Assembly (NCBI GenBank): GCA_040755005.1
Contig: JBFMBV010000002.1
Location: 13,761-77,760 of the forward strand
DNA length: 64,000 nucleotides
Direction: 5' to 3'
Source of the DNA: Bacillota bacterium
GTDB taxonomy: Bacteria; Bacillota; Sulfobacillia; JBFMBV01
Positions 2,486-46,811 of this stretch are shown here, piece after piece. The position numbers and the translations under genes were made by a program. The first letter of the stretch is position 1. Every line of letters starts with the position of its first letter. The notes under the pieces were generated by a model. The model was not told the DNA's origin. It did not search any database and was given only the letters and a program-made list of their open reading frames with translations.

Positions 2486-2488
2486 CCC

Positions 2489-27118: not shown

Positions 27119-27148
27119 TTGACCCTGTTCTGGCAGTTGTGTATAATA
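27119..27148 (+). promoter_or_regulatory. Sigma-70-type promoter for tRNA-Asn (TTGACC -18 nt- TATAAT)
   Basis: TTGACC at 27119-27124 and TATAAT at 27143-27148; the tRNA starts 10 nt downstream. Confidence 0.45.
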
Positions 27149-27157: not shown

Positions 27158-27232
27158 TCCTCGATAGCTCAATGGTGGAGCACTCGGCTGTTAACCGAGG
27201 GGTTGCAGGTTCGAGTCCTGCTCGAGGAGCCA
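27158..27232 (+). tRNA. tRNA-Asn (anticodon GUU), CCA encoded
   Basis: Cloverleaf readable: acceptor TCCTCGA/TCGAGGA, D-arm GCTCAATGGTGGAGC, anticodon loop CTGTTAA (GTT), T-arm GCAGGTTCGAGTCCTGC, discriminator G + CCA. Confidence 0.85.
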
Positions 27233-27237
27233 AGCAC

Positions 27238-27265
27238 AAACCGCCGGTGACGGCGGTTTTTGTGT
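27238..27265 (+). terminator. Rho-independent terminator downstream of tRNA-Asn
   Basis: AAACCGCCG-GTGA-CGGCGGTTT followed by TTGTGTTT. Confidence 0.6.
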
Positions 27266-27392
27266 TTGGGGTACGTCATCTGGAGTGTCTTTCCATTAAT
27301 GGGTGGTTCTTGACCGACTTCGTCTCTTTTCATATACTCGCATTGGATCATGTACGCATCGGGATCTCTCGAACGCGAGGGAGGGGAACCAT

Positions 27393-28275
27393 ATGCTGAT
27401 GAGGCAGAAGGCAATCCTAGGCCTCCTCATCCAGGTCGGCAGGTCGCTTTCGCCGACCGCCTTTGTGAAGCTCGTCTTCCTCCTCCGTTGCGAGACATCC
27501 TTAAGGGAGAACCCGTGCTTCTACGACTTCGTACCGTACGACTATGGACCTTTTTCGTTTACACTTTTTTGCGGACTTGAATGGCCTCCGACGGAACGGG
27601 TATGTGACGGGGGAAGACGAGTCGATCGCGCTCTGCACCTGCGTGCTGGAGTCGGCCAAGAAGCTCGCTCAGGAGCTCCCGGCAGGTACGCGTGCCGCCA
27701 TTGCAGACATTGTAAGTCGTTACGGGGCCATGAGTATTGATGACCTCGTCCAATACGTCGATGAAAGGTATCCGTGGTTCACCATCAACAGCAAGCTGTT
27801 GGGACGGAACGCTGCAGCTACCCGGCACGGCAATCGGGCCCGCCCAGCCGTCTATACGACTGGATACGAAGGGTGTTCAGTGGAGAGCTTCTTTGGCGGC
27901 ATCCTTGAACGAGGCATTCACGTGATAGCTGATGTGCGGGCAAACCCATGGTCCCGCAAGTACGGGTTTTCTGGCCCACGGCTCGCTGAGTTCTGCCAGA
28001 GGCTCGGTCTTGAATACCAGCCCACGCCTAGCCTGGGAATACCCAGTTCCGCTCGGAGCGAGCTCAATGGCTTTGCATCGTACCAGCAGCTCCTCAGCCA
28101 ATACGAGCAGACCTTACTCCCGAGACGGGTGACGGAGGTCGAGGCTCTCTCCCAGCTCATGCGGCGGACACCGACCGTGCTTGTCTGCGTGGAGAAAGAT
28201 GTCCGTTTGTGCCACCGAAGCAGATTGGCGGAGGCCATAAAGAGCGGTACCGAGCTGGAGGTGGTCCACATATGA
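27393..28275 (+). pseudogene. Panacea-domain (DUF4065) - DUF488 fusion gene split by a frameshift in a T6 run (or a sequencing error)
   Basis: Frame A 27393-~27570 encodes a Panacea-like N-terminus (KLVFLLRCETS..FYDFVPYDYGPFSFTLF). Frame B (ORF 27544-28275) continues in a protein-like way (ADLNGLRRNGYV...) and ends with a full DUF488 domain (TTGYEGCSVESFF..IADVRANPWSRKYGF..CHRSRLAEAI..VHI). Removing one T from TTTTTT at 27565-27570 joins them. Confidence 0.55.
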
Positions 28276-28574
28276 CGGGCACACCTGGGCAAGAGCGCCT
28301 CAGGGTTCTGATTACCGTGAAGACTTACCCTATCCCTTCGGCCAAGTACGACGAGCTAGTCTGCACAGCGGGAGTAACGGAGAACGGCGATTTTGTCCGT
28401 CTCTATCCGGTCAACTTCCGTGATCTAGCTTTCCGCAGTCAATATAAGAAACCCAGTGGATCGAGGTACTTGCCCAGGGGCATCGGGGGCGTGACGTACG
28501 CAAGGAGAGCTACCCCTTTAACGGAAGCCGCCGGTGCATCGCGCACGGCGGTACTGCCGTCGGCACCCAGTTGA
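28272..28574 (+). CDS. Hypothetical ORF; only the N-terminal ~50 aa look protein-like. Possibly a gene remnant truncated at the island junction.
   Basis: ATGA overlap with the preceding stop. Sequence becomes low-complexity and GC-biased towards its end, just before the degenerate tRNA-like repeat. Confidence 0.25.
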   Translation: MTGTPGQERLRVLITVKTYPIPSAKYDELVCTAGVTENGDFVRLYPVNFRDLAFRSQYKKPSGSRYLPRGIGGVTYARRATPLTEAAGASRTAVLPSAPS

Positions 28575-28597
28575 AGTGGCCCCCGAGGGATTGTAGT

Positions 28598-28655
28598 TTG
28601 AGTCCCACTTGAGGAGCATCTACGGAACCGCCGGCAACGGCGGTTTTTGCCTGAC
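28598..28655 (+). repeat. Degenerate direct repeat of the tRNA-Asn 3' end plus its terminator (att-like junction scar)
   Basis: GGGATTGTAGTTTGAGTCCCACTTGAGGAGCATCTACGGAACCGCCGGCAACGGCGGTTTTTGCC is about 80% identical to 27200-27262 (GGGGTTGCAGGTTCGAGTCCTGCTCGAGGAGCCAAGCACAAACCGCCGGTGACGGCGGTTTTTGTG). Confidence 0.6.
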
Positions 28656-28775: not shown

Positions 28776-31700
28776 ATGACACAGGACGGCAACAACCTCG
28801 CTCCCGGCGATGTGGTCTCGGGCTTGGAGCCCTCTGAGCTCGTCGAGATCCAGCGCATTGTTCCCTTCGGCGGCAAGACGCTGGTCGAAGGCGTCGGGCT
28901 CCAGTCCCGCCGCCTGTTGAAGCGTCCCCTCACCGCGGAGGAACTGGCCGCTCTCGTCAGAGTTCGCGGCCAGCAACGCACGTTTGACGGCGATGCCCGG
29001 CTTTTCCTCCTTGGCGCCGAGGCTGAACGCATCCGTATCGCCTACCAGTTCGACCCCCTCTTCGCCGTTAACTCCAGCATCGTCGACCCCCTCCCTCACC
29101 AGGTTGAAGCAGTCTATCGATACCTCCTCCCCTTGCCGAGGATCCGGTTCCTGCTCGCCGATGACACCGGTGCCGGCAAGACGATCATGACCGGGCTACT
29201 AATCAAAGAACTGCTCTTCCGGGGAGTGCTCCAGAAGGTACTGATCATCACACCGGGGGGCCTGACGAAGCAGTGGAAGGAAGAGGAGTTGCAGGAGCGG
29301 TTTGGGCTCTACGCGCGGCTAGTGAACCGCGCGTCCTTTGATGCCGAGCCGGGCCAATTCGCCCGTTATGAAGAGGGCATCTTCGTCACGTCCATCGATT
29401 TTCTCGGACGGAATGAGGGGTGCCTCAAGGCCGCCTCTGAAACCCAGTGGGACCTCGTGGTCGTCGACGAGGCCCATAAGCTGTCGGCCTATGAGTACGG
29501 GACCAAGTTGGAAGAGAGCGAACGGTACAAGGCGGTGAAGGCGCTCGCCGGCAAGAGCGATCATCTGCTCTTCCTCACCGCGACGCCGCACCGGGGAAGA
29601 AAGGACACGTTCCGCCGGCTGCTCCTCCTTCTCGACCCGGACCTGTTCCAAAAGGACGAACATGTCACCGATCGAGTCCGCGAGCAAGCAGTGCCCTACG
29701 GAACCTCCGAGGCAGAGGACTTTGAGGATGAACGCCCGATTAGTAGGGCGCGCAACCGCTTCTTCCTTCGTCGCCTGAAGGAGGAGATGGTAGACTGGGA
29801 CAACCACGCCCTCTTCAAGGATCGTCACACGAAGACCACCGGCTACGATCTCACCCCGGAGGAGAAGACCCTGTATGACCAGGTGACAAGCTACGTCCGC
29901 TCGCAGCGCAAGCAAGCCCAGGCGCAGAAGAACCGGAACGTCGAGCTGACCCTCATGGTCATGCAGCGCCGTCTGGCCAGCAGCCTCTACGCGATTACGC
30001 GGACGTTGGAGAACCGCCTACAGGTCCTCAACGAGGTCCTTGCCATCCTGAGGGACCCGAGCCGCTCCGAGGCGGACAAAAGGAAACTGCTCAGGGGAAC
30101 TCCAGACCCCAACGAACCGCGCAGCATCACGGAATACTACGAGCTCAGCGAGGAGGAACGCGAGCGGGTCGACCGGCGGATCTCCCGTCAAGTCCTGACG
30201 AGTAACCCGGATAAGGTTCAGGAAGAACGGGATGAGGTCGAACGGCTGTTCCATCTGGCTGACAGTCTTAAGCACCATGAGGAAGCGAAGTTCGCCCAAC
30301 TCCTTGCCGTGCTCGACTCCTCTGACGTGATCCGCGCGGAGGACGAGAAGCTCCTGATCTTCACCGAGCATCGCGACACGATGGACAGCCTCGCCAAGCG
30401 GCTCGAGGAGAAGGGGTACACGGTCGCCACGATTCATGGCGGCATGGACGTGGACTCCCGTAAAGAGGCCCAACGACAGTTCAGGGCACATGCCAAGATC
30501 ATGGTTGCTACCGATGCCGCGGGCGAAGGTATCAACCTTCAGTTCTGCCGACACCTGATCAACTGGGACATCCCGTGGAACCCGAACAGGCTCGAACAGC
30601 GCATGGGGCGCATCCACCGGTACGGTCAGACCGACGATGTCTGGGTCTACAATCTGGTTGCCCAGAACACCCGGGAGGGCTCGGTCCTCCAGAAGGTCCT
30701 CTCCAAGATGGACGTGATGCGTGAGCAGATGGGGACCGACCGGGTGTACGATGTGATTGACGAGTGGCTGGAGGATGTGCCACTGCTCCGGCTGATCGAG
30801 AGTGCGATTGACGACGCAGACGAATCTGCGAGTGCCAGAGAGACCGACGCCGCCCTCTCGGCGGCATCCAACGAGAGGGCCGCTAGGCTCATAGCCCTCC
30901 AGAAGAAGACCTCCCTCGCCTCACGCCTGAGTCTTAGATCCGCGCGTGAGCTGCGAGATGCGTCAGACGAGCGCCGGCTTCAGCCACTGTTCGTCGAGCG
31001 GTTCTTCGAGCGCGCGTGGACGGCTTGCGGGGGCACAATCCGCCAGGACGACCACTTTCCGGTATGGCACATCGGTTCCACGCCGACCGCCTTGCTGGAA
31101 CTCGCCCAGGAGCGGCGGCAGCCTCTGTCAGATGACTTCGACACGCCCTTCGTCTTCGACAAGCAGCTCGTCAGCGTTGCCAGCAAGGTGCGTACCCCCG
31201 AGCGTACGAAGCTGATAGGCCCCGGACACCCGCTCTTCGACACCTTGATCGAGTGGGCGATCCGGGAGGCGCGACAGGCCTTCGCCAAAGGGGCGACCCT
31301 CGTGGACCCTAACATTGCCACACCCCAGCGGCTTTGGCTAGTCCGCTCGACCATCGAGGACGGACGTCGGCAATACCGGCAGGATCGTCGCAAGCTCCCT
31401 GCCCATGAGCGCCTGGCCGTGATCGTACAAGACCACATGGGCCTTCGCACGACCTCGCCTTCATACATGCTCAACTGCGTAGCTCCAGATGCCCCCCTAC
31501 CGGTTCCCGACGTGGCAGCGAGGTCTGCGGAGGAGATCCAGGCCTGGGCCCATGAACAGATCACCGAGCGGCAGCTCGACCAGGTCAAGACCCTCCGTGA
31601 GGAGGAGTGCAGTCTCCGCCAGGAGTATCTCAACACTGCCTTCACTGGTCTCATCCTTCAGCTGCAGGGGGAGTTGAACGACCTGCAGCAGGCGGAGCTC

Positions 31701-32315
31701 TACGGAGACGACAATGCGGAGGAGCGTGAGCGGCTCCGGCAACGAGTCAAGGATCTGAAGGTCCGACGGGCCGAACGGCTGCAAGAGCTGGAGCTCATGC
31801 TGAAGCTGACCGCCAACCTCCCTGATCTCCTGACGGAGGCCGTGGTCGCCCCTGTCCCAGTGGCTATGGTGGAGAGCGACGCAGAGGCACCGTCCAGGGG
31901 CTTCCCGATGCGACGCGACGACGAGGTCGAGGCCATTGCCATGGACGTGGCCATGCGCTACGAGCGCGGACGCGGGTGGACACCTGTAGATGTCAGCCGG
32001 GACGGAGATCACTATGACGTCCGGTCGGAAGGGCCTAGTGGAGAGAAGCGGTTCATCGAGGTCAAGGGCCGCGCCCAGTCGGGCGCCATCGTCCTGACCG
32101 GTCCCGAGGTGGACAAGCTTCGCCAGCTCGGCGAGCGGGCCTGGTTGTACGTCGTTACCTTCTGCAAAGGCGAGCGTCCCAGGCTACGCATCATCCAGGA
32201 CCCCATCGCCAATCTCAGCCCAGAGATGCTCTATCGGCAGATCCAGTACATCGTCACAGAAGACGATTGGGCACAGAAGTGCGAGGAAGTATCGGAAGGA
32301 GGCCAACCCCTATGA
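28776..32315 (+). CDS. SNF2/DEAH-family helicase with C-terminal DUF3883-like domain (defence-associated)
   Basis: Walker A LADDTGAGKT, DEAH box (VVVDEAHKL), LLFLTATPHRG, helicase-C motifs (ATDAAGEGINLQ...WNPNRLEQRMGRIHRYGQ). C-terminal DUF3883-type segment (DVSRDGDHYDVRS...RFIEVKGRAQSG). Start chosen at ATG 28776; the track ORF begins at 28647. Confidence 0.8.
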   Translation: MTQDGNNLAPGDVVSGLEPSELVEIQRIVPFGGKTLVEGVGLQSRRLLKRPLTAEELAALVRVRGQQRTFDGDARLFLLGAEAERIRIAYQFDPLFAVNSSIVDPLPHQVEAVYRYLLPLPRIRFLLADDTGAGKTIMTGLLIKELLFRGVLQKVLIITPGGLTKQWKEEELQERFGLYARLVNRASFDAEPGQFARYEEGIFVTSIDFLGRNEGCLKAASETQWDLVVVDEAHKLSAYEYGTKLEESERYKAVKALAGKSDHLLFLTATPHRGRKDTFRRLLLLLDPDLFQKDEHVTDRVREQAVPYGTSEAEDFEDERPISRARNRFFLRRLKEEMVDWDNHALFKDRHTKTTGYDLTPEEKTLYDQVTSYVRSQRKQAQAQKNRNVELTLMVMQRRLASSLYAITRTLENRLQVLNEVLAILRDPSRSEADKRKLLRGTPDPNEPRSITEYYELSEEERERVDRRISRQVLTSNPDKVQEERDEVERLFHLADSLKHHEEAKFAQLLAVLDSSDVIRAEDEKLLIFTEHRDTMDSLAKRLEEKGYTVATIHGGMDVDSRKEAQRQFRAHAKIMVATDAAGEGINLQFCRHLINWDIPWNPNRLEQRMGRIHRYGQTDDVWVYNLVAQNTREGSVLQKVLSKMDVMREQMGTDRVYDVIDEWLEDVPLLRLIESAIDDADESASARETDAALSAASNERAARLIALQKKTSLASRLSLRSARELRDASDERRLQPLFVERFFERAWTACGGTIRQDDHFPVWHIGSTPTALLELAQERRQPLSDDFDTPFVFDKQLVSVASKVRTPERTKLIGPGHPLFDTLIEWAIREARQAFAKGATLVDPNIATPQRLWLVRSTIEDGRRQYRQDRRKLPAHERLAVIVQDHMGLRTTSPSYMLNCVAPDAPLPVPDVAARSAEEIQAWAHEQITERQLDQVKTLREEECSLRQEYLNTAFTGLILQLQGELNDLQQAELYGDDNAEERERLRQRVKDLKVRRAERLQELELMLKLTANLPDLLTEAVVAPVPVAMVESDAEAPSRGFPMRRDDEVEAIAMDVAMRYERGRGWTPVDVSRDGDHYDVRSEGPSGEKRFIEVKGRAQSGAIVLTGPEVDKLRQLGERAWLYVVTFCKGERPRLRIIQDPIANLSPEMLYRQIQYIVTEDDWAQKCEEVSEGGQPL

Positions 32316-34237
32316 AGATCAAGTCGGTACGCATTCGTAACTTCCGCTCCGTGAGAGGGCAGCTCGTTGAGCTTGGCGACTACACATGCTTTGTGGGAGC
32401 TAATGGTTCAGGGAAGTCTAACGTGCTTCATGCTCTTAACGTTTTCTTCGGAACAGACACCCCTGGCCTCGACACCCACGAACTAGAAGAGGAGGATTTT
32501 CACAACAAGAACACAGGAGAGCCTGTAGAGATAACAGTTACGTTTTGTGACCTCTCGCCGCAAGCCAAAGAGGAACTAAAGCACTATGTGCGCCACGACC
32601 AACTGGTAGTCTCAGCTGAAGCGGGTTTTGACGCTGATACCCGCAAGGCTGCGGTCAAGCAGTATGGACGCAGGATGGTGATCAGGGAGTTTGCGCGCTT
32701 CTTTGAGGCTGAGAAGAAGACAGGCACGAAGGTCTCGGAACTCAAGGAGATATATGCGGACATACAAAAGAGATACTCACAACTGCCTGTTACAGGAACA
32801 AGGGAAGCCATGATCACGGCGCTTCGGTCATATGAGGAGAGTCACCAGGAGGAGTGTGAGGAGCTTCCGAGCAGCGACCAGTTCTATGGAGTAGCCAAAG
32901 GAACAAACCACCTCGAGAAGTACATCCAATGGGTCTATCTCCCAGCAGTCAAAGACGCATCGAGCGAACAGGCTGAAGCCAAAACCACGGCCCTCGGAAA
33001 GCTCTTGGCACGCACCGTTCGATCCAAGGTCAACTTCAAGGAGTCGATTGACGCTATCCGTGGAGAAACACGAGAAAAGTACGAAAAGCTTCTGGTCGAT
33101 AGTCAGGAGGAGCTGGCAGAAGTATCTCAAGCTCTAAGAGATCGCTTTGTGCTGTGGGCACACCAGGACGCGACTCTCCGGCTGGAATGGCAACAGGATC
33201 CTGAGAAGGCAGTACGTGTGGACGAACCATTCGCTCAAGCCATTCTCGGTGAGGCAGGCTTTGAGGGGGAACTCACCCGTTTCGGACACGGACTTCAACG
33301 GTCCTTTCTCCTGGCGCTTCTGCAAGAACTCTCCGGTAGTAACATCGAGGCGGGTCCGCGGCTGATTCTCGCGTGTGAGGAACCTGAGCTTTACCAGCAC
33401 CCCCCTCAGGCAAGGCACCTATACAACGTGCTGCTGAGACTGAGCGAACAGAACTCTCAGATTCTTATTGCGACCCATAGCCCCTACTTCGTGTCCGGTG
33501 AAGGCTTTGAGAGTGTACGAATGGTTCGCAAGTCTAACGGGGCGTCTTCGATCACGAGGGCGACACATGACGAAGTATCGAAGAGAATCGCGAAGGTTCG
33601 AGGAGAGCAGCCTATAAGGGCCAGCGGCCAACTGGCCAAGATCCATCAGGCGCTCCAGCCGGGACTTAGCGAGATGTTCTTCGCCTCCCGAGTCATATTT
33701 GTTGAAGGTCTTGAAGACATTGCCTATATAACAACATACTTACATCTCCTAGGCTTGTGGGACGAGTACAGGAGGCTCGGTTGCCACTTGATCTCGACTG
33801 GTGGGAAGAACGAAGTGCTTCTGTCCTTGGCGGCTGTGAAGTGCCTCCAGATCCCGGCTTTCGTTGTCTTCGATTCAGACGATGACAAACCGGACAAGAA
33901 CGGCAGCAAGCAGAAACATCGAAAGGACAACTCTGCAATCCTAAGTCTATGTGACGTTGACAGTCTGCAAGTGTCTCCGTCCGATACATTCTGGGGAGAC
34001 TCCGCGGTCATGTGGTCCTCTGATATTGGGCAGGTGGTTGCGCAGGAGATTGGAGCCGAGGACTGGGACAGGTATCGCTCTGAGGCTGACGCGAAGTATG
34101 GGCACGTAGGGAACCTCCGCAAGAACATGCTACACATCGCATCGAGCCTGCAAATAGCTTGGGAAGCTGGGAAAGAGTCGGACTCGCTAAGGAAGGTCTG
34201 CAACAAGATCATGGAGTTTGCTCAGAAGAATGGATAG
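32312..34237 (+). CDS. OLD-family ATP-dependent nuclease (N-terminal ABC-type ATPase + C-terminal Toprim)
   Basis: Walker A GANGSGKSN. Toprim motifs (IFVEGLEDIAYI ... FVVFDSDDD). Noticeably AT-richer than its neighbours. ATG 32312 overlaps the helicase stop; RBS GGAAGGAGG. Confidence 0.8.
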   Translation: MKIKSVRIRNFRSVRGQLVELGDYTCFVGANGSGKSNVLHALNVFFGTDTPGLDTHELEEEDFHNKNTGEPVEITVTFCDLSPQAKEELKHYVRHDQLVVSAEAGFDADTRKAAVKQYGRRMVIREFARFFEAEKKTGTKVSELKEIYADIQKRYSQLPVTGTREAMITALRSYEESHQEECEELPSSDQFYGVAKGTNHLEKYIQWVYLPAVKDASSEQAEAKTTALGKLLARTVRSKVNFKESIDAIRGETREKYEKLLVDSQEELAEVSQALRDRFVLWAHQDATLRLEWQQDPEKAVRVDEPFAQAILGEAGFEGELTRFGHGLQRSFLLALLQELSGSNIEAGPRLILACEEPELYQHPPQARHLYNVLLRLSEQNSQILIATHSPYFVSGEGFESVRMVRKSNGASSITRATHDEVSKRIAKVRGEQPIRASGQLAKIHQALQPGLSEMFFASRVIFVEGLEDIAYITTYLHLLGLWDEYRRLGCHLISTGGKNEVLLSLAAVKCLQIPAFVVFDSDDDKPDKNGSKQKHRKDNSAILSLCDVDSLQVSPSDTFWGDSAVMWSSDIGQVVAQEIGAEDWDRYRSEADAKYGHVGNLRKNMLHIASSLQIAWEAGKESDSLRKVCNKIMEFAQKNG

Positions 34238-37166
34238 CAGCAGCACTATCGGTTGGTGTCCGCGTTTGATCGAGGTGGCACTCCCCATCCGTGAAATCTC
34301 GGCAGAGAGCGTGCGGGACAAATCGCTGCGGCACGGCCATATCTCCACGCTTCACCTCTGGTGGGCGCGTCGACCGCTGGCTGCGTCACGAGCGGTTGTG
34401 TTCGCGTCGCTCGTGCCCGATCCCGACGACCCGCGTTGTCCGGCCGACTTCAGGGCAGCGGTGGAGCGTCATCTCAAGACGCACGTGCCGGCGGAACTGA
34501 GATACTACCTTCGCGGCCGCCACAGTCACCGTGATGAGGACCCGTACCGGCCCTACGATGGCATGCCGGACACGCTGCGGAACCGCCTCCTCATGTTCAT
34601 CGCCAAGTGGTCGCCGGAGTCCCTGACGTTTGAGGCCGGCAAGCGGAAGAACGCGCCCGTGCCGAAAGAGCTCCTGGACGACCGCTCCCTCGTGAAATGG
34701 GAGACCTCCGATCCTGAGAACGCCCAAGGCCAGGAGATCCTCCGCATCGCCCGCCAGCTTGTGAAGGCCGCCCACAGGGGCGACGTCCCGAGGGTGCTCG
34801 ATCCCTTTGCCGGCGGCGGGGCGATTCCGCTGGAGGCCGGGAGGCTCGGCTGTCAGGCCATTGCCAACGACTACAACCCGGTCGCGTATCTCATCCTTAG
34901 GGCGACCTGCGAGTTTCCGCAGAGGTACGGTAAGCCAGGCAAGAGGACGGTGGTCGTGGAGGAGTTTGGCAAGAAGGCCGAACGCGAAATCCAGGTTCAA
35001 AACGTCCTCGTCCACGACTTCGCACAGTGGGCGAACTGGATTCTCGAGCGGGCTCGCCAGAGGATTGGGCATCTGTATCCTCCCGGCATGGACGGCAGGC
35101 CGGTTGTGGGCTACCTCTGGGCCCGCACTGCGCCGTGCTCGAACCCCACCTGCCGTGGCGAGATTCCCCTGTTACGGAGCCTTCTGGTCTGCAACAAGAA
35201 GGGGAAGCAAGTCGCGCTGACGATGGATGTGGACAGCAAGCGGAAGACGGTTCGATTCGGGATCGCGGAAGGCAACGCCATCAGGATGACTGACGGCACC
35301 ATGCAGAGTCGCGGAAACGTTTTGTGCCCGTACTGCGGACAGGTGACCCCTGTCGCCGACCTACGGACCGCTGGACGCGCGGGCCGCATGAGCGAGCAGA
35401 TGGTATGTGTCGTGGTGGAAGGAAAGGGTGGAAAGGACTACCGGGAGGTGGAGTACACAGACCTCACGGGGATTGCCTGCGCAGCGAAGATCGAGGTTGA
35501 GTGTCCCGGGGAGAGAATTCCTGAGAACCAGTGGAATGTGAAGACCTGGCTGTATGGAATGAAGACCTGGGGTTCCCTCTTCAACCCCCGCCAGCTCGTG
35601 GCCATGCAGACGTTTGTCTCCTGTCTCCACGAGGCGCTAGGAGGGATGAAGAGAGAGATCGCCGACGACGAGTACCGGAAGGCGGTTGGAGTCTGTCTGG
35701 GGCTTTGGCTGAACCGGATTGCCCAGCGAAGTTCGAATGTAGGAATTTGGGACACAACCCGAGAGACCTTTGCTCATCCCTTTGGCCGCCAGGCTATCCC
35801 TATGACGTGGGACTATCCCGAGGCGAACCCTTTTTCAGAGACAACAGGGGGTGCGGAAGGCGGACTGGACTGGATGAAGCGGGTGATCCTGCATGAGTCA
35901 GGGAATTCCCTACCTGCCTACGTGACACGCAGTGATGGCGCGGCCCTTCCCTTCAGGGAAGCATCTTGCGACTTGGTCGTCACCGATCCACCCTATTTTG
36001 ACGCCATCGCTTACGGTGACCTCTCCGATTACTTCTACGTTTGGCTCAAGCGCGGCCTTGGCGATGTCATCCCTGAGGCCCTGATCACGCCGCTCACGCC
36101 CAAGGCTGATGAGGCGACTGCACTCAAGCATCGTCATTCCGGCGACGGAGAGAAGGCGGATGCTCACTTCAAGTCAAAGTTGGCGGCGGTACTAGCGGAG
36201 GCACACCGGATCTTAAGGCCTGATGGCATCGTCTCGATCATGTTTGCACACCAGTCCACAGAGGCGTGGACGGCCCTGGTTTCGGCGATCTTCGAGGCTG
36301 GGTTGACGGTGCACGCGACGTGGCCGATTGACACGGAGCTCACTACGGCCTTGAAGGCCAGCATGTCGGCTCTGTCGTCGTCGGTAACCGTTACCTGCCG
36401 TCCGCGCGCTGTAGCAGGTGCTATATCCTCCAAGGCGGTCCGCAGTGAGATCGAGGAGGTAGTGGGCCGTTCCGTAAAGCGCTTCTGGTCCTACGGCTTT
36501 CGCGGCGCAGACCTCATCGTTGCGTGCTATGGACCCGCTGTGGGGGTCTTTGGGAAATACGAGCGAGTGGAGAAGGCAGATGGCACCCCTGTCGGCATCC
36601 CCGAACTCCTGGTGCTTGCCAAGCAGGCCGCCCGTGACGCGATCGCCGGGGATTTCCGCGGAGACAACTTCTCAACCCTCTACTACGTCTGGGCGAACCT
36701 CTACGGGGCGGCGGAGCAGGCTTGGGATGACGCCCGGCTGGTCGTGCAGATCGGAGGAGACGAGGACAACGCCATGGAGGTTGCCCGCGGGCATGGGATC
36801 TTTGTGGTGGACGGTCCGAAATGCCGCCTTGCGCTCCTAGAGGACCGCGCCAATCGCCGAGGACTTGGCATGGATCAGAACCCGCCACACATTGACGCGC
36901 TACATCGCAGCATGCTCCTCTGGAAGAAGGAAAAGCGTAAGGATCTAGTCGAGTATCTCCGTGAGCGCGACCTCTTGGAGGATGGCCCGTTCTGGAAGCT
37001 GGCGCAGGCCCTGTTCGAGGTCCTTCCCCGCGATCTGGAGGACTGGAAGCTGGTCAGCGCTTTGCTCGGCGAGCGCCAGACTTTGCGTACGGAGGGCAAG
37101 CGTAGCGCGTACAGGGATGAGCAACAGGAGCTGTCCTTCGACGAGGGAGGCGGTGAGCGAACATGA
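34230..37166 (+). CDS. DUF1156-type DNA methyltransferase (N6-adenine/N4-cytosine class, DPPY motif)
   Basis: DUF1156-like N-terminus (RLIEVALPIREISAESVRDKSLRHGHISTLHLWWARRP). SAM motif I VLDPFAGGGAIPLEA. Catalytic motif IV DLVVTDPPY. ATG 34230 overlaps the OLD stop (ATGGATAG). Confidence 0.75.
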   Translation: MDSSSTIGWCPRLIEVALPIREISAESVRDKSLRHGHISTLHLWWARRPLAASRAVVFASLVPDPDDPRCPADFRAAVERHLKTHVPAELRYYLRGRHSHRDEDPYRPYDGMPDTLRNRLLMFIAKWSPESLTFEAGKRKNAPVPKELLDDRSLVKWETSDPENAQGQEILRIARQLVKAAHRGDVPRVLDPFAGGGAIPLEAGRLGCQAIANDYNPVAYLILRATCEFPQRYGKPGKRTVVVEEFGKKAEREIQVQNVLVHDFAQWANWILERARQRIGHLYPPGMDGRPVVGYLWARTAPCSNPTCRGEIPLLRSLLVCNKKGKQVALTMDVDSKRKTVRFGIAEGNAIRMTDGTMQSRGNVLCPYCGQVTPVADLRTAGRAGRMSEQMVCVVVEGKGGKDYREVEYTDLTGIACAAKIEVECPGERIPENQWNVKTWLYGMKTWGSLFNPRQLVAMQTFVSCLHEALGGMKREIADDEYRKAVGVCLGLWLNRIAQRSSNVGIWDTTRETFAHPFGRQAIPMTWDYPEANPFSETTGGAEGGLDWMKRVILHESGNSLPAYVTRSDGAALPFREASCDLVVTDPPYFDAIAYGDLSDYFYVWLKRGLGDVIPEALITPLTPKADEATALKHRHSGDGEKADAHFKSKLAAVLAEAHRILRPDGIVSIMFAHQSTEAWTALVSAIFEAGLTVHATWPIDTELTTALKASMSALSSSVTVTCRPRAVAGAISSKAVRSEIEEVVGRSVKRFWSYGFRGADLIVACYGPAVGVFGKYERVEKADGTPVGIPELLVLAKQAARDAIAGDFRGDNFSTLYYVWANLYGAAEQAWDDARLVVQIGGDEDNAMEVARGHGIFVVDGPKCRLALLEDRANRRGLGMDQNPPHIDALHRSMLLWKKEKRKDLVEYLRERDLLEDGPFWKLAQALFEVLPRDLEDWKLVSALLGERQTLRTEGKRSAYRDEQQELSFDEGGGERT

Positions 37167-40000
37167 GTGACACTCTCAAACCCTGGTATGCAGTTGCGAC
37201 ACCTCACGAGGACATCCGCGAAGGACGGCTCGCAGAGGCCATCTTTGCGGCAAACGTCTGGGCGGTCGTCCAGGGTACGGCGCCCGAGATCTACCTCGAC
37301 CCTGAGGAGTTTTTCCGTAAGACCTACCTCACCACCGGACTAACCACGGTGCTGAACCGCGTTGCGGGCGCGCTCCGACGCAACGGCGAGGTTGGAGACC
37401 GCATCATCAGCCTCCAGACAGCCTTCGGCGGTGGGAAGACGCACACGCTGGTGGCCCTGTGGCATCTAGCGAAGTATGCCGACCGCTTGGCGGGCTCGCC
37501 TCACTCAGATGCCCTTCGGAGAGCCATCGGCGGCCGATTCCCGGAGAAGGTGAAGGGCGTCGCCGTCTTCACCAACCAGACCTGCGATGCGACCCAGGGA
37601 CGTAGGGTCGCAGATGGCGTTCACCTGCGCACGTTGTGGGGAGAGTTAGCCTACCAGCTCGGCGGGAAGGAGCTCTACGAACGCGTCCGTGCCAATGACG
37701 AAAGCCAGCGCGTGCCTCAAGGGCTCTTCTTCGAGATCCTGCAGGCCGCCGCACCCTGCCTGATCTTGCTGGACGAGCTTGCCGACTACTGCGTTGGCGC
37801 GGCGGCAGTGCCGGTAGGTGACACGAGCCTGGCAGACCAGACCGTGTCCTTCATCCAGCAGCTGACCGAGTCCGTCCAGCAGGTGCCGGGCGTAGTGGTG
37901 GTCGCCACCCTGCCGGCGAGCAAGCACGAGGTCGCCCAAAGCGAGAAGGGCCAGGAGGCCTTCGTGACACTGGAGAAGCGCTTCCAGCGTCTCGGAGCCG
38001 ACGTCAAGCCGGTGGCGGATGTGGAAATCTACGAGGTTGTCCGGGCCCGCCTCTTCGAATCCATCGCACCGGACACTGCTCCGGACTATCCTAAGAAGGT
38101 TGCCCAGGCGTACCAGAGTATGTACGCGGCGCACTCGGGTGAGGTACCCCCCGAGGCCGCCAAAAACACGTACCGCGAGCAGCTCGAGCGCGCCTATCCG
38201 TTCCATCCCCTGCTCATCGACGCACTCTACACGCGCTGGGGCAGCCACCCCGATTTCCAACGGACGCGGGGTGTATTGCGCCTGCTGGCGAGCATCGTAG
38301 GCGACCTTTGGAAGCGCCGGCAGGGAAGCACCGAGACCCAACACCTGATTCAGCCGTGCCATGTCCGCTGGTCTGTCGATGCGCTGCAGGCTGCGCTCAC
38401 ACGACTCTGGGGACCCGCCTATCAATCCGTTGCTGCTGCCGACGTCATCGGGGAGCGGTCCAATGCCGGCATCTTCGACGAAGAACGTGGTGGCGACTAC
38501 CGAAGCGAGTCCATCGGCAAGGGGCTGGGGTCTGCGATCATCCTCGGCTCATTCGGCGGCCAAGGTGGCCGCAGCGGGTTCAGCGCTAGAGATCTGAAGC
38601 TGGCATGCTCCCGGCAGGGTTTAAACTGGAGTTACACGGACGGGGCTCTGCTGGAGCTGGAGAACCGCTGTTTCTACCTCCACACGGTGACGTCCGGAAG
38701 CCTCGGCAAGCGCTACTGGTACGGCACAAAACCGACCCTCAACAAGCTGGTCGTCCAGTACCGTCAGCAGAGCGCCAAGGAGGACTTCGGCGAGGAGATA
38801 CTGGAGGACCTCCGGGCTGATTCCCAGAAGAGCCCCATGGCTGGTGCGACGTGGCGGGTGGTCGTCAACCCCGCAGAAGACCTGCCAGAGCAGAAGTCTC
38901 TCACGCTACTGATCCTTCCGCCGTCCCTGGCCTGGGACGAGAACGGCGGGGCGAAGGACGTGGTCCAGGCACGCGTACAGGCGATCAGCACCAGGTGCGG
39001 CGGAAGGGACCGCCTGTATCGGAACACGCTCCTGTTTCTGGTTGGGACCACTCGCGGGCTCACTAAGCTGCGGCAGGCCTATCGGGAGCAGGCAGCGCTG
39101 GAAGGCGTGCGTGCGGACTACTGGGAACAGCTCGATGAGGAGCAGCGCGAGGAGCTCAAAAAACGACTGGATGCGGCGCGCAAAGCCGCCCTGGAAGCGC
39201 TGGGCCCCGCCTACACCGTTGCCCTCCGAGTGCGCGGGCAAGAAGTAGAGCCATGCGTGCTCTCGGACGCGCGGCGAACCTTCCCAGAACACCTTGGTTA
39301 TGTGTGGACGACGCTCGTCGAGGACGAGGAGTGGATTCTCCGTCGTGTTGGGTCGGTGACGCTGGAGAGCACGGGCCTCATCCCGAAGGAAGGCGGCCTT
39401 CGCTTGAAGGATGCCGTCGAGGCCTTCCTGCGCTTCACGGACAAGCCCATGGTCGCGACCAAGGAGGCGGTGACCACCGGGCTCGCCCAGGCTTGCCTGG
39501 ACGGACTGGTTGGCATCGGCAGAGGTGGAAGCCTGTCGACACTCCTGACCCGCCATTGCAGGCAGTCGGTGTCGCTCGACCCCAACGAAGACGGTGTGTG
39601 GATCATCCCTCCGTTCACACCGGAGCCGACGATGGTTCCTGGGGCTGAGGGAACCGCCGGAGTTGGGATCAATGTCGGGGGACCGGGCGGCCCAGGTGGA
39701 ACAGGCTCCAGCACGGGCAGTGGGGAAGGTGCGGCAACGACCGCCACGGGTAAGCCGGGAATCGAGGGCACGGTGCGTCGGTTCGTCGTCCGCGGCGAGG
39801 TTCCCGTGGAGAGCTGGGGTGAGCTCTTTCGCTGCTTCGTTGGGCCTGCTGCACGGATGAACCTGAAGAAGTTGCAGCTCGGCGTGCAGTTCGAGATGGT
39901 GCTCCCTGAGGAGCGGGTGCTGAGCGAGACCGATCACACGCTCAAGACGATCAAAGAGGCCGCCCGCCAGCTGGGGCTCACCTTCGAGGTGGGGGAGTAA
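37163..40000 (+). CDS. DUF499-family ATPase (BrxC/PglY-like) of a BREX-related, methylation-associated defence system
   Basis: Walker A LQTAFGGGKTHTL and Walker B LILLDELADY in a DUF499-like context; about 945 aa; ATGA overlap with the methyltransferase stop; RBS GAGGGAGG. Confidence 0.75.
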   Translation: MSDTLKPWYAVATPHEDIREGRLAEAIFAANVWAVVQGTAPEIYLDPEEFFRKTYLTTGLTTVLNRVAGALRRNGEVGDRIISLQTAFGGGKTHTLVALWHLAKYADRLAGSPHSDALRRAIGGRFPEKVKGVAVFTNQTCDATQGRRVADGVHLRTLWGELAYQLGGKELYERVRANDESQRVPQGLFFEILQAAAPCLILLDELADYCVGAAAVPVGDTSLADQTVSFIQQLTESVQQVPGVVVVATLPASKHEVAQSEKGQEAFVTLEKRFQRLGADVKPVADVEIYEVVRARLFESIAPDTAPDYPKKVAQAYQSMYAAHSGEVPPEAAKNTYREQLERAYPFHPLLIDALYTRWGSHPDFQRTRGVLRLLASIVGDLWKRRQGSTETQHLIQPCHVRWSVDALQAALTRLWGPAYQSVAAADVIGERSNAGIFDEERGGDYRSESIGKGLGSAIILGSFGGQGGRSGFSARDLKLACSRQGLNWSYTDGALLELENRCFYLHTVTSGSLGKRYWYGTKPTLNKLVVQYRQQSAKEDFGEEILEDLRADSQKSPMAGATWRVVVNPAEDLPEQKSLTLLILPPSLAWDENGGAKDVVQARVQAISTRCGGRDRLYRNTLLFLVGTTRGLTKLRQAYREQAALEGVRADYWEQLDEEQREELKKRLDAARKAALEALGPAYTVALRVRGQEVEPCVLSDARRTFPEHLGYVWTTLVEDEEWILRRVGSVTLESTGLIPKEGGLRLKDAVEAFLRFTDKPMVATKEAVTTGLAQACLDGLVGIGRGGSLSTLLTRHCRQSVSLDPNEDGVWIIPPFTPEPTMVPGAEGTAGVGINVGGPGGPGGTGSSTGSGEGAATTATGKPGIEGTVRRFVVRGEVPVESWGELFRCFVGPAARMNLKKLQLGVQFEMVLPEERVLSETDHTLKTIKEAARQLGLTFEVGE

Positions 40001-40252
40001 TCGGCTCCTAATCCGGAGCACCACCGCCTTACTGCTGCAGCACAGCTATGCCTCAGCACCTCGGGCAGCGCCACGGCCTGCGGGAGAAGCCAAGTATCGT
40101 ACCCTAAGGATGTACGGCTGGCATCTGAAGAAGCGCTAACACTGGCGGGTTGGGTCGATTCCCAACCGACTCTAGGGGGTCACATGCAGCCCGGCGATAA
40201 GGGCAAGAACCGTCACGTCTGGTCAGGCGGTTGCTGAACGGAAGGGGATAGT

Positions 40253-43200
40253 ATGGCGCAGCAAACCAGACCACGCGTCACCCAGCGGGCGTACTCACTC
40301 CGGTTGCGGGGGACCACACCGGGCGACACATCATGGCGGGATGCGCTCTGGCAGACCCATGAGGCTGTCAACAAAGGTGCCAAGGCATTCGGTGATTGGC
40401 TGCTTACTTTGCGTGGCGGCCTGGATCACACACTTGCGGCCGCCAAGACCGACGGAGAACGCCGCCAACGACGCATTCTCTTGGCTCTGTCATGGCTGTC
40501 GGTGGAATCAAAACGCGGAGCTCCGGATGACTTCATTATCAGGCACGGCGGACACGACCGAGGTAAAGCTGTAACCGGGGCACTTGAGGAAATCCTAGTG
40601 CGTCGGGGTGTGGACCAGAGTGAGCTAGCTGAGTGGAAGCGCGACTGCTCCCCGTCCTTGCACGCAGCTATTCGCGAGGATGCCGTTTGGGTGAATCGGA
40701 GCAGGGCATTTGATGGTGCGGTCAACTCAATAGGTTGCTCACTCACGCGCGAGGAGGCGTGGGACATGCTGGAACGCTTCTTCGGAAGCCGTGAAGCCTA
40801 TCTGGCTCCAGCGAAAGGGTCCGAAGATGAGTCTTCCGACACAGGGCAAGAGGAGAAAGCAAAGGACCTCGTCCAGAAGGCAGGGCAATGGCTCAGCAGC
40901 CGGTTCGGCACCGGCAAAGGAGCGGACTTCTCCCGCATGGCCGAGGTCTATCAAGAGATCGCGAGTTGGGCTGGCGCACACTCACCGGACAAGCCGGGCA
41001 CGCATGCCATTGCCAGCCTTGCGACCGCCCTCAGCGAGTTCACTCCTGCATCAGACAACCTACAGGGCGTGCTTGGTCTGATCAGCGGTCCAGGATACAA
41101 GAGCGCGACGCGCAATCTTCTCACTCAGATCGCCGCCAAGACCACCGTTACTCAACAAGATTTTACGAAACTGAACGCAACGGCGACCGCGGATAAAGGA
41201 AAATGCATGACGAACACCGGATCGAAGGGGCAACGAGCATACTCCGACACCATCCTCAAGGACGTGGAGTCGGCTTGTGGGTTCACCTACCTGCAGGACG
41301 GAGGGCCTGCTAGACACCCGGAGTTTGCAGTCATGCTTGACCACGCAGCTCGCCGCGTTTCCTTGGCCCACACGTGGATCAAGCGGGCTGAGGCGGAACG
41401 TCGCCGGTTTGAGGAAGAAGCGAAGCGTATGGCCAATGTCCCATCTCCTGCTAGGGAGTGGCTGGACTCGTTCTGCTCGGAACGTTCGGGAACGTCAGGT
41501 GCTTTGGAACCCTACCGTATCCGGCGGCGGGCGGTGGACGGGTGGAAGGAAGTGGTCACCGCATGGAGTAGGAGTTCATGTAGTACCGGCGCCGACCGGA
41601 TCGCCGCCGCTCGGGCGTTGCAGGACGCTCCAGAGATCGACAAGTTCGGCGACATTCAGCTATTCGAGGCCCTCGCTGAAGACGACGCCGTGTGCGTTTG
41701 GCACAAGGATGGCGATGCCGCGAAACCTCCCGACCTTCAGCCGCTGCTTGACTACGTTTTTGGCGCTGAAGCGGAGTTCAAGAAACGGCACTTCAAGGTG
41801 CCGGCGTACCGCCACCCCGATGCGCTTTTGCATCCGATCTTCTGCGATTTTGGGAAGTCCCGCTGGGACATCTGCTTCGACGTCCAGAAGAACGTGCAAA
41901 CGCCCTTTCCGCGGGCGCTTTGCCTGACGCTTTGGACCGGGAGCGGGATGGTAGCAGTTCGGTTGTGCTGGCAGTCCAAGAGGCTTGCATGTGATTTGGC
42001 CCTTGGAAACAACGCGAGGAATGCAGGTGCTTCCGCGGTCACCCGCGCGGACAGATTGGGACGAGCTGCCTCAAATGTGACAAAGAATGATGAGGTAAAT
42101 ATCGCGGGGCTCTTTGAACAAGCAGACTGGAATGGCCGGTTGCAGGCTCCAAGACAGCAGTTGGAAGCCATCGCCGCACGTGTGGCCAAACACGGCTGGG
42201 ATGATAAGGCCGTACAGATGCAATATCGTATCCAATGGTTGGTGTCTTTCTCTGCCAAGCTTCAACCGCAGGGCCCGTGGCTCACCTATGGAATGGCAAA
42301 TAACCTGAAGCTAGACCAGAAGAACGGTGATATTGTTATCGCGCCGCCTAACACCAAGAATGAATGGCGTGGGCTGGCTTACCCGTTCTGGCATCCTGAT
42401 AATCAGGAAGGCCGTAAGGGATTGGCCAAGCACTGCCTCTCCCGTTTGCCCGGTCTTCGCGTGCTTTCTGTCGACCTTGGTCACCGTTATGCTGCGGCGT
42501 GCGCGGTGTGGGAAGCGGTAAACACCGAGCAGATCAAGGTAGCGTGCCAGGCCGCCGGACATGATGAGCCGAAGGAGAGCGATCTCTACCTGCATCTCAA
42601 GAGAAAGGCGACGAAGCAGAAGAGGGGCGAAAACGTCGAGGTCGAGAGAACCACTATCTATCGCCGCATCGGCGCGGACACATTGCCGGACGGTACGCAG
42701 CATCCCGCCTCGTGGGCGCGCCTGGACCGCCAGTTCCTCATCAGGCTCCAGGGCGAGGAAAAGGGAGCTCGCGCGGCATTAAACGAGGAGATATGGGCGG
42801 TTCATCAACTGGAGGCTGAACTGGGCAGGACCGTGCCAATTATCGACCGACTGGTCAGATGGGGTCAGTCCGGCAAGCAAGAAACGAGACTCGATGCGCT
42901 ACGTAATCTGGGGTGGGCACCGGCAAACGAGGTTCAAGGCTCTGACGAGATGGACGAAGGCGAAGTCCGTAAGCCATCGCGCTCCGTTGACGAACTGATG
43001 TCCTCCGCCGTCCGGACCATGCGCCTCGCGCTCAAGCGCCATGGCGACCGGGCGCGAATCGCCTTTGCCATGACGGCAGCCTATAAACCTTTGCCCGGCG
43101 ACCGCAGATACTACTTCACCGAGGCGAGAGATGCTTCGGCGAACGAAGATGCTAATGCGCGGAACGGTACGCATATCGAGTCTATCCAAGATGCTCTGCT

Positions 43201-44659
43201 CCTCTGGTATGGATTGGCATCCTCCCGTGGATGGCGGGACGACGCGGCAAAGCGACTGTGGGATGACCATATCACCGGATTGTCCGGATACAAGGCTCCG
43301 GAAGAAATCGGTGAGGATGTCTCCGGTGTAGCGCGCAAGACGAAGCAAAGAGAGAATCGAGAGAAACTCCATCATGTGGCGGAGGCCCTGGTCAAGGATG
43401 CAAGGCTTCGAGAGGCTCTCCACGACGCCTGGAAGAAGCGATGGGAAGCGGACGACGAGCGGTGCAAAAGACAGCTTCGCTGGTTCAAGGACTGGATTCT
43501 TCCCCGCGGCAAAGCCGCGAGTGATCCGACCATCCGCAAGGTCGGCGGACTCTCCCTTCGCCGGCTTGCCACGCTGACCGAGTTTCGCCGCAAAGTTCAA
43601 GTGGGATTTTTCACCCGCCTTCAACCGGATGGCATAAGGGCTGAAGCCAAAGAGCAGTTCGGGCAGAGCGCCTTGGACGCTCTGGAACATCTACGCGAGC
43701 AGCGCGTCAAGCAACTTGCCAGTCGCATAGCCGAGGCGGCGCTCGGTATCGGACGGATGAGGCGGCCCATGGGAGGCAAGGACCCCAAACGGCCAAGTGT
43801 CCGTGTAGACGCGCCTTGCCACGCCATCGTCATCGAAGACCTTACCCACTACCGGCCGGAGGAAACTCGTACCCGGCGGGAAAACCGCCAACTCATGACG
43901 TGGTCGTCCTCGAAGGTCAAGACGTACCTGGCCGAAGCCTGCCAACTCCACGGCCTGCACCTCCGCGAAGTCTCGGCGAGCTACACGTCGCGCCAGGACT
44001 CCCGCACAGGAGCTCCCGGCATCCGCTGTCAGGATGTGCCTGTCAATGAGTTCATGCGGTTGCCGTTCTGGAGGAAGCAGGTTAAGCAAGCGGAGGCGAA
44101 GCAGGCCGAGAACAAGGGCGACGCGCGTGAGCGGCTCCTCTGTGACCTGAACTCAATGTGGAAAGACAAGGCTGTAGCCGATTGGCAGAAGGCCGGGGTT
44201 ATCCGTGTTCCACTAAGAGGAGGCGAGATATTTGTTTCGGCCAGCCGGGACTCCCAGGGAGTGAAGAGCCTTCAAGCCGACCTGAACGCCGCTGCCAACA
44301 TCGGCCTGCGGGGGCTTACTGACCCGGACTGGCCGGGAAAGTGGTGGTACGTGCCATGCGAGCCGGCCAGCTTCAAGCCCACACCTGATAAGGTAAAAGG
44401 TAGTGCCGCGATCAACCTGGACATGCCACTCAAAGACGCATCGGTCGGCAGCGGGGACGTAACCAGGAAGAAAGCCGGGAAGGCCAAGTCACAGTCCAAA
44501 GAGGTTGTTAACCTCTGGCGAGATGTCTCATCACGGGTGATTTCTGCGGAGGGCGTGGCGTGGGAAGTCTATTCCGCCTATCAGAATCAAGTGCAGGCGC
44601 GAGTGGTCGATATCCTGCACAGATCCGCGTGCTCAAACAATGACCGGGAGAAACAATAG
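40253..44659 (+). CDS. cas12b: Cas12b (C2c1) type V-B effector nuclease, unusually long (1468 aa)
   Basis: N-terminus alignable by eye to AacCas12b (RAYSLRLRG..SWRDALWQTHEAVNKGAKAFGDWLLTLRGG). RuvC-I VLSVDLGHRYAAACAV; RuvC-II IVIEDLTHY...YTSRQDSRTGAPGIRC; RuvC-III QADLNAAANIGLRGL. Followed by cas4/1, cas2 and an array. Confidence 0.85.
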   Translation: MAQQTRPRVTQRAYSLRLRGTTPGDTSWRDALWQTHEAVNKGAKAFGDWLLTLRGGLDHTLAAAKTDGERRQRRILLALSWLSVESKRGAPDDFIIRHGGHDRGKAVTGALEEILVRRGVDQSELAEWKRDCSPSLHAAIREDAVWVNRSRAFDGAVNSIGCSLTREEAWDMLERFFGSREAYLAPAKGSEDESSDTGQEEKAKDLVQKAGQWLSSRFGTGKGADFSRMAEVYQEIASWAGAHSPDKPGTHAIASLATALSEFTPASDNLQGVLGLISGPGYKSATRNLLTQIAAKTTVTQQDFTKLNATATADKGKCMTNTGSKGQRAYSDTILKDVESACGFTYLQDGGPARHPEFAVMLDHAARRVSLAHTWIKRAEAERRRFEEEAKRMANVPSPAREWLDSFCSERSGTSGALEPYRIRRRAVDGWKEVVTAWSRSSCSTGADRIAAARALQDAPEIDKFGDIQLFEALAEDDAVCVWHKDGDAAKPPDLQPLLDYVFGAEAEFKKRHFKVPAYRHPDALLHPIFCDFGKSRWDICFDVQKNVQTPFPRALCLTLWTGSGMVAVRLCWQSKRLACDLALGNNARNAGASAVTRADRLGRAASNVTKNDEVNIAGLFEQADWNGRLQAPRQQLEAIAARVAKHGWDDKAVQMQYRIQWLVSFSAKLQPQGPWLTYGMANNLKLDQKNGDIVIAPPNTKNEWRGLAYPFWHPDNQEGRKGLAKHCLSRLPGLRVLSVDLGHRYAAACAVWEAVNTEQIKVACQAAGHDEPKESDLYLHLKRKATKQKRGENVEVERTTIYRRIGADTLPDGTQHPASWARLDRQFLIRLQGEEKGARAALNEEIWAVHQLEAELGRTVPIIDRLVRWGQSGKQETRLDALRNLGWAPANEVQGSDEMDEGEVRKPSRSVDELMSSAVRTMRLALKRHGDRARIAFAMTAAYKPLPGDRRYYFTEARDASANEDANARNGTHIESIQDALLLWYGLASSRGWRDDAAKRLWDDHITGLSGYKAPEEIGEDVSGVARKTKQRENREKLHHVAEALVKDARLREALHDAWKKRWEADDERCKRQLRWFKDWILPRGKAASDPTIRKVGGLSLRRLATLTEFRRKVQVGFFTRLQPDGIRAEAKEQFGQSALDALEHLREQRVKQLASRIAEAALGIGRMRRPMGGKDPKRPSVRVDAPCHAIVIEDLTHYRPEETRTRRENRQLMTWSSSKVKTYLAEACQLHGLHLREVSASYTSRQDSRTGAPGIRCQDVPVNEFMRLPFWRKQVKQAEAKQAENKGDARERLLCDLNSMWKDKAVADWQKAGVIRVPLRGGEIFVSASRDSQGVKSLQADLNAAANIGLRGLTDPDWPGKWWYVPCEPASFKPTPDKVKGSAAINLDMPLKDASVGSGDVTRKKAGKAKSQSKEVVNLWRDVSSRVISAEGVAWEVYSAYQNQVQARVVDILHRSACSNNDREKQ

Positions 44660-44689
44660 TGATGACCACTCCGTGGCCGGGAGCCTGCT

Positions 44690-46408: not shown

Positions 46409-46424
46409 CTTGCCGGAGGCTATT

Positions 46425-46715: not shown

Positions 46716-46811
46716 CTTTCGGGGTGCCAGAAGGTATGATTTCCCTGAGGCCTCTACAGGAGGCGAGAGTACCACGGCACGTGTCTTCCCCTTCAATGGG
46801 CTTGGCACCGT

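Follow-up and report, generated by a model that had tools for sequence, protein, structure and literature searches.

How does a tRNA gene come to be followed by a second, decayed copy of its own 3' end, and what does this copy tell about the foreign DNA that begins right there? The question is raised by a stretch of 64,000 nucleotides from an uncultured, high-GC Bacillota bacterium (GenBank assembly GCA_040755005.1, contig JBFMBV010000002.1, forward-strand positions 13,761 to 77,760; this whole stretch is the window in the following, and all coordinates refer to it). In the window, the 3' part of an intact tRNA-Asn(GTT) gene and the hairpin terminator that follows it recur in direct orientation 1.4 kb downstream. 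The two copies enclose the remnant of a two-gene defence candidate, PDC-M19, and a 20-kb block of defence genes starts behind the second copy. The repeat is real and highly significant, and it is derived from this tRNA-Asn rather than from other tRNAs. It is probably the integration scar of a mobile element that inserted at the tRNA-Asn gene, decayed and is now immobile.

The evidence for the repeat itself comes from several scores. A BLASTN search of the window with the tRNA gene and its downstream sequence (27158–27275) yields a single match besides the query, in which positions 27195–27262 (copy 1) align with 28583–28649 (copy 2) at 51 of 68 positions with one gap (E = 1e-8). In a global alignment 54 of 69 columns match, distributed as 30/38 in the tRNA part, 2/7 in the linker and 22/24 in the terminator. 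The pair reaches a Smith-Waterman score of 33, the tRNA part and the terminator part alone scoring 20 each, compared with 14.8 ± 1.4 (maximum 18) for the best matches of shuffled queries in the window. Scored against its possible sources, copy 2 reaches 20 with this tRNA-Asn, 10–16 with the tRNA-Asn alleles of relatives, and at most 9 with their tRNA-Met, -Glu and -Val. A sequence-only reading of the window had reported that the tRNA 3' end and the terminator reappear downstream, and these scores bear this out, with some correction in the details: the second copy starts at 28583 and not at 28598, the repeat takes in 38 nt of the tRNA and not 33, and the identity, put at about 80%, is 75–78% as measured and 77% over the range given in that reading. 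ARAGORN detects no tRNA gene in the window besides tRNA-Asn(GTT), and no third tRNA-derived copy was found in it, neither by BLASTN with a word size of 7 nor by Smith-Waterman scans with either copy.

The anatomy of the two copies points to a particular kind of origin. The first base of the repeat, 27195, is the exact start of the 3' strand of the anticodon stem (CCGAG), directly 3' of the anticodon loop, and the 5' half of the tRNA has no repeat at copy 2. Leaving aside the scrambled 7-nt linker, the tRNA part and the hairpin differ by eight substitutions, every one a transition, which argues for descent with mutation and not for convergence. Two of the eight turn the T-stem pair 50–64 from C-G into T-A, a state that is found in functional tRNA-Asn alleles of two relatives (L008 and L010). 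Copy 2 further shows C56>T, U63>C, the deletion of one T-stem G, and CAT in place of the terminal CCA; of these, C56>T, U63>C and the lost G are three changes that would inactivate a tRNA. Altogether the tRNA part of copy 2 is about 21% diverged and carries this one deletion. The stem and the T-run of the hairpin are identical in both copies. At 21% divergence, the chance that 22 hairpin positions stay unchanged is about 0.006 (0.79^22), so that selection on the hairpin, or else a history of its own, is probable. The compensatory changes that had been ascribed to the terminator stem do not exist, since the change from GTGA to GCAA sits in the loop, which is of the GNRA type in both copies. Copy 1 folds with −28.2 kcal/mol (27228–27270; z = −5.6), copy 2 more weakly with −18.1 kcal/mol (z = −2.8), and the copy 2 hairpin was not flagged by the terminator scan.

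The DNA enclosed by the copies is foreign by its composition. These 1.3 kb have a GC content of 0.57 and a GC content at third codon positions (GC3) of 0.62–0.69, compared with 0.68 and 0.83–0.92 in the flanking core. The module between the copies is a broken two-gene defence candidate, which was cut by a deletion close to copy 2. The reading frame of its first gene is interrupted by one extra T in a T6 run (27565–27570); with this T removed, the gene encodes 293 amino acids that match the PADLOC PDC-M19A profile end to end (positions 1–292 of 294, E = 3e-73) and include a DUF488 domain (E = 8e-19). The second gene, which overlaps the first in an ATGA start/stop at 28272–28275, resembles PDC-M19B up to about 28452; the remaining ~215 codons are absent, and the DNA left before HmaA is too short to hold them. 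An intact M19A beside an intact M19B, the PADLOC criterion for a PDC-M19 system, was not found here. The module had been described as a Panacea-DUF488 gene plus an open reading frame (ORF). The DUF488 part of this description holds, and the ORF is the truncated PDC-M19B gene. Panacea (SocA-like, PF13274) has to be dropped: the corrected M19A product reaches 13.6 bits (E = 0.13) against a Pfam gathering score of 25.7 bits, and the uncorrected ORF gives no match at all. Pfam searches with peptides from the junction regions detected no protein-domain remnant, the resemblance of phage and plasmid records to the module was confined to the tRNA and the DUF488 domain, and no viral contig carried the hairpin pattern. 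The name PDC-M19 was not found in the searchable literature.

That phages do use this tRNA end as an attachment site is illustrated by a viral genome. A scan of IMG/VR with the last 25 nt of the tRNA led to IMGVR_UViG_3300001446_000006 (L055; 24.4 kb), of which a stretch of 8.4 kb with a GC content of 0.64 was fetched. ARAGORN finds no tRNA in L055, yet a tRNA-Asn 3' end is there: it begins one base ahead of the anticodon loop, runs to the CCA, agrees with the window at 47 of 48 positions and has a hairpin behind it. The part of interest is 2395–3728, and the order on the contig is lysis genes, attachment site (attP), tyrosine integrase and CI-like repressor: the tRNA segment lies 20 nt downstream of the integrase gene, which encodes Arm-DNA-binding, SAM-like and catalytic domains, a CI/S24 repressor gene lies beyond the integrase, and the lysis genes, which encode a holin and an SLH-domain amidase, point towards these from the opposite side. 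By this gene order the segment is a typical attP of a contiguous temperate-phage genome. As this attP consists of the same tRNA-Asn 3' end and a hairpin beside an integrase gene, the proposed mechanism exists for this tRNA. The host of L055 is probably a high-GC, S-layer-bearing Bacillota, judging from the SLH-domain lysin and the GC content, and since one base of the anticodon stem differs from the tRNA of the window, its natural host would have a slightly different tRNA-Asn. A likeness between the sequence behind copy 1 and that behind the attP of L055 (TTTGYGTTTGGRGT) was considered and rejected as not significant (p = 0.5), for which reason L055 does not serve to tell which of the two copies is the element-derived one. 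The spacers of the CRISPR array in the window match neither L055 nor the other fetched loci, the best agreement being 20 of 34 positions.

On these grounds the following course of events is favoured. A mobile element with a tyrosine integrase would have recombined its attP into the tRNA-Asn gene, and this attP would have brought along a 3' end to replace that of the tRNA-Asn, together with a hairpin terminator. The outcome would be an intact tRNA on one side (27158–27262) and the displaced 3' fragment with its terminator on the other (28583–28649). Later the insert would have shrunk to 1.3 kb, with the integrase and most of the cargo deleted and the dead PDC-M19 pair left behind, and the displaced fragment would have gathered inactivating transitions and a deletion. 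The hairpin stem of copy 2 would have been kept, probably for a continued role in ending transcription of the remnant. The sequence-only reading had likewise called the repeat a scar of site-specific integration. The direct orientation of the fragment, its start at the anticodon stem, the foreign DNA enclosed and the attP of L055 all agree with this; the recombination by an integrase that made the repeat and the deletion that removed the integrase are both steps that we infer.

Four observations weigh against this course of events. Firstly, neither an integrase nor a remnant of one is present in the window, which leaves the mechanism to be deduced. Pfam searches of all long ORFs of the window and of the junction peptides gave no tyrosine integrase (PF00589) or other recombinase, and in tblastn three diverged tyrosine integrases found nothing better in the window than E = 0.065, at a position outside the island; the earlier statement that the window lacks an integrase is thereby upheld. 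Secondly, the 7-nt anticodon loop matches copy 2 at 2 of 7 positions only, and the crossover can accordingly not be assigned to one of the sublocations distinguished by the Islander database, i.e., anticodon loop, T loop, or T/acceptor junction. Thirdly, the near-identity of the hairpins (22/24) would call for an attP cassette from a closely related tRNA-Asn locus or for two related elements. Finally, an empty site was not found in a close relative.

The relatives that could be compared explain how this last point arose. Sampling of the lineage is sparse. Relatives of ~95% identity are represented by only two populations, in the form of 1.2-kb Logan contigs (L012 and L018) that share their starting base in rpoD and break off within the tRNA, at 27205 and 27203, respectively. 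The label of an insertion hotspot, given to this tRNA in the sequence-only reading, finds no support in these contigs. Their ends were considered as traces of att-site or strain heterogeneity and rejected in favour of an assembly-graph fork at k = 31: as the 32-nt block 27174–27205 is common to tRNA-Asn alleles of other Firmicutes, such a graph forks within the tRNA regardless of variation at the att site. The contig with the nearest RpoD (P0002) is 5.5 kb long and runs out directly behind rpoD. Searches for RpoD, histidine-kinase and PIG-L homologues together with 12 context look-ups retrieved no syntenic close relative; a GTDB scan with the PIG-L protein gave only homologues of 28–32% identity, the PIG-L homologues of ~60% identity are not syntenic, and a JGI scan with the central 29-mer of the tRNA returned 34 unrelated low-GC loci. 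In four more distant relatives (L004, L008, L010 and L011; RpoD 83–85% identical), rpoD is followed by a tRNA cluster Asn-Met-(Glu)-Val. The sequence downstream of the cluster differs in all four, and in L004 and L011 an integrase-bearing prophage or element stands directly behind it. In the wider clade, integrases thus make use of the rpoD-proximal tRNA region; an empty site for the genome of the window is not supplied by these loci. What looks like a tRNA-Asn 3' fragment within the L004 integrase gene was set aside as probably due to chance (score 14, p ~0.025). It was also observed that the lineage of the window has only tRNA-Asn behind rpoD, with a PIG-L deacetylase gene inserted between them, and that the PIG-L homologues of the relatives reside elsewhere in their genomes. 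In a lineage with a 60% identical PIG-L (L016/L017, 7770–9882), the DNA just upstream of the PIG-L gene holds a Fic gene and a stand-alone DUF488-N3a gene; this is a second DUF488/PIG-L neighbourhood, which may be a coincidence.

The explanation that survives best beside the favoured one is that of the sequence-only reading, in which at least two elements inserted in succession. Copy 2 would then mark the junction between a younger PDC-M19 remnant and an older Hma/Cas12b island, whose own distal tRNA fragment would have decayed or been deleted. Accretion of this kind is a tentative possibility, somewhat improbable as a whole. The earlier observation that a defence/CRISPR island of ~20 kb starts right after the second copy is correct: its first gene begins 127 nt behind copy 2, and the block is foreign in composition up to 49.0 kb, core-like values being resumed at a histidine-kinase gene (49027/49075). 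Moreover, GC3 is 0.74–0.78 in the Hma genes, 0.60 in the OLD nuclease gene and 0.63–0.67 in the cas genes; as GC3 is low and varies among its genes, including those of PDC-M19, the region from 27.26 to 49.0 kb is foreign and itself a mosaic, as would be expected from several acquisitions. Two related attP cassettes would account for the near-identical hairpins, and tRNA genes at which decayed elements have accreted are well documented (PMC5704250). A terminator-like hairpin at the right edge of the block is furthermore the best match of copy 2 outside the repeat pair, and none of 370 equal-sized tiles reaches its score of 17. Yet 17 is also the mean of the whole-window null, and generic features of GC-rich terminators could explain it. 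The flank of this hairpin is free of tRNA-derived sequence (the tRNA part scores 6 there, against a null mean of 7.5), and so is the entire interval of 48.7–49.03 kb. Neither unit has an integrase, and there is one tRNA fragment only, whereas the Islander rule for tandem arrays assigns every member its own fragment and its own integrase (PMC4383910). The claim of at least two sequential insertions is thus not supported by the window. The route by which the adjoining Hma/OLD/Cas12b block arrived cannot be read from this sequence, foreign as the block is by composition.

A more specific form of accretion, and rather an unlikely one, would involve a family of elements in high-GC Bacillota whose attP cassette comprises the tRNA-Asn 3' half and a terminator with a GNRA loop, comparable to that of L055. 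Members of such a family might have accreted successively at this site, each adding a fresh tRNA end and terminator and leaving its cargo behind, Hma/OLD/Cas12b first and PDC-M19 next, with the hairpins acting as insulators.

Copy 2 could also be what is left of another chromosomal tRNA-Asn gene, or of a segment duplicated locally without an integrase, which lost its 5' half through illegitimate recombination accompanied by insertion or deletion of foreign DNA. The tRNA genes clustered downstream of rpoD in relatives lend this idea some plausibility, and so does the pattern of a conserved tRNA part and hairpin around a scrambled linker, which is the pattern of two once-functional paralogous or orthologous loci; the change of the T-stem pair 50–64 is compensated, too, and its T-A state is functional in L008 and L010. 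Three findings render it improbable nonetheless: the similarity ends precisely at the edge of the anticodon stem, in the region of integrase crossover that is also seen in the attP of L055, none of the relatives examined has a second tRNA-Asn gene in the cluster, and the DNA between the copies is foreign and made of defence genes. Chance resemblance, or convergence of two GC-rich intrinsic terminators, is excluded by the statistics even though GC-rich hairpins with T-runs look alike, as the right-edge hairpin illustrates, for the 36 nt of the tRNA part reach a score of 20 by themselves, more than the 18 that shuffled versions of the whole 68-nt query attain at most, the combined score lies ~13 standard deviations above the null, the BLAST E-value is as low as stated above and every substitution is a transition.

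How does the favoured integration scar compare with known systems? Repeats of tRNA 3' fragments at the ends of islands have been known since 1989 and are catalogued by the thousands. tRNA-Asn serves as attachment site for the asn-tRNA islands of Enterobacteria, such as the high-pathogenicity island of Yersinia, which bear an integrase and are bounded by a direct repeat of the tRNA 3' end; these islands differ from the present case in that they belong to an unrelated phylum and have retained a P4-like integrase and short exact repeats. More generally, integration splits the tRNA gene (tDNA), the incoming element makes it whole again, and the island ends are then marked by the restored gene and by the displaced fragment (PMC4383910). 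In the Islander database the fragment is a 3' fragment in 3760 of 3919 islands, and the anticodon loop is the commonest crossover region (2083 of 3919; PMC4383910). As in tDNA islands and prophages (Reiter 1989; Williams 2002; PMC4383910), an intact tRNA and a direct 3' fragment here bracket foreign cargo of low GC content, the fragment starts beside the anticodon loop, and tDNA and cognate fragment lie in the same orientation on one replicon, as Islander demands. Unlike in these islands, the interval in the window contains no integrase and measures only 1.3 kb, the fragment is ~21% diverged, and the repeat reaches past the tRNA into a terminator hairpin. The structure does not pass the integrase filter of Islander, nor does it conform to its tandem-array rule. 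The closest match is provided by cis-mobilisable elements (CIMEs) and tandem remnants from integrative and conjugative elements (ICEs) or integrative and mobilisable elements (IMEs), in which att-derived repeats stand in tandem with foreign DNA at the 3' end of a tRNA gene (Pavlovic 2004; Bellanger 2011; PMC5704250). CIMEs lack genes for integration and transfer and keep functional left and right attachment sites (attL and attR). In the window such genes are absent as well, but copy 2 is degenerate in the T loop and T stem and no partner ICE or IME accompanies the remnant, and its cis-mobilisation appears doubtful from these changes. L055 shares with the window 47 of 48 positions of the tRNA-Asn 3' end and a hairpin behind it, and differs in its hairpin sequence and in that it is a phage region complete with genes for integrase, repressor and lysis; no further similarity to the remnant was found.

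The features of the locus are collected in Table 1. The left flank is a conserved Bacillota block of yqfD, phoH, era, glyQS, ppdK, an HD phosphohydrolase gene, dnaG and rpoD, followed by the PIG-L deacetylase gene. Within the foreign block, the genes for Cas12b, Cas4/Cas1 and Cas2 and the array form a complete type V-B CRISPR-Cas locus (40253–48701), and one gap of 109 nt in the array (48270–48378) indicates a degenerate repeat that was missed by the search pattern. The OLD nuclease gene between HmaA and HmaB has a GC content of 0.53 and, with the GC3 given above, lies much below the Hma genes, which suggests either that it entered the Hma operon at a later time or that this is a four-gene variant of the Hma system. 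Behind the last CRISPR repeat and ahead of the histidine-kinase gene there is an ORF of 37 codons with a Shine-Dalgarno-like sequence (48766–48879), and the right-edge hairpin, which is GC-rich and has a T-run, follows it. A gene at 58197–59405, in the DNA of core composition right of the island, encodes a protein that combines TPR/ST7-like repeats with a HEPN domain at its N terminus.

Table 1. Features of the tRNA-Asn locus and the adjoining foreign region (window coordinates).
Feature	Position	Strand	Remarks
Promoter-like site of tRNA-Asn	27119–27147	+	TTGACC-17-TATAAT, 11/12, near-consensus
tRNA-Asn(GTT), intact	27158–27232	+	ARAGORN; Rfam RF00005, 70.3 bits; attL side in the integration model
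Repeat copy 1	27195–27262	+	tRNA 3' 38 nt (3' strand of anticodon stem to CCA), 6-nt linker, hairpin terminator
Hairpin terminator of copy 1	27238–27262	+	Stem ACCGCCG/CGGCGGU, loop GUGA, T-run; flagged by terminator scan
Promoter-like site upstream of PDC-M19 genes	27310–27338	+	TTGACC-17-TATACT, 10/12
PDC-M19A homologue	27393–28275	+	N-terminal region and C-terminal DUF488; frameshifted
PDC-M19B, truncated	28272–28574	+	Residues 9–60 match profile positions 3–54 of 269
Repeat copy 2	28583–28649	+	Decayed tRNA-Asn 3' fragment 28583–28618, scrambled linker, hairpin 28626–28649 with loop GCAA; attR side in the integration model
Compositionally foreign 20-kb defence block	28776–48701	+	First gene 127 nt after copy 2
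HmaA	28776–32315	+	
OLD-family nuclease	32267–34237	+	AAA_15 and OLD-like TOPRIM
HmaB	34218–37166	+	
HmaC	37163–40000	+	
Cas12b/C2c1	40253–44659	+	1468 aa
Cas4/Cas1 fusion	44690–46408	+	
Cas2	46410–46715	+	
CRISPR array	47032–48701	+	~24 copies of the 36-nt repeat GCCACCGACATCGAAACGGATCTGATCGACGGACAC
Terminator-like hairpin, right edge of low-GC block	48921–48952	+	Weak resemblance to copy 2 hairpin

Taken as the integration scar that we favour, the structure is a classical immobilised tDNA-fragment scar, an ordinary one that adds no new principle. Its importance lies in what it delimits in this uncultured, high-GC Bacillota: it sets a precise left boundary for a 22-kb defence region that comprises the PDC-M19 remnant, the Hma genes, the OLD nuclease and the type V-B CRISPR-Cas12b system, and it gives a likely mode of origin for this region. 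With PDC-M19, moreover, a candidate defence system has been caught in the process of loss.

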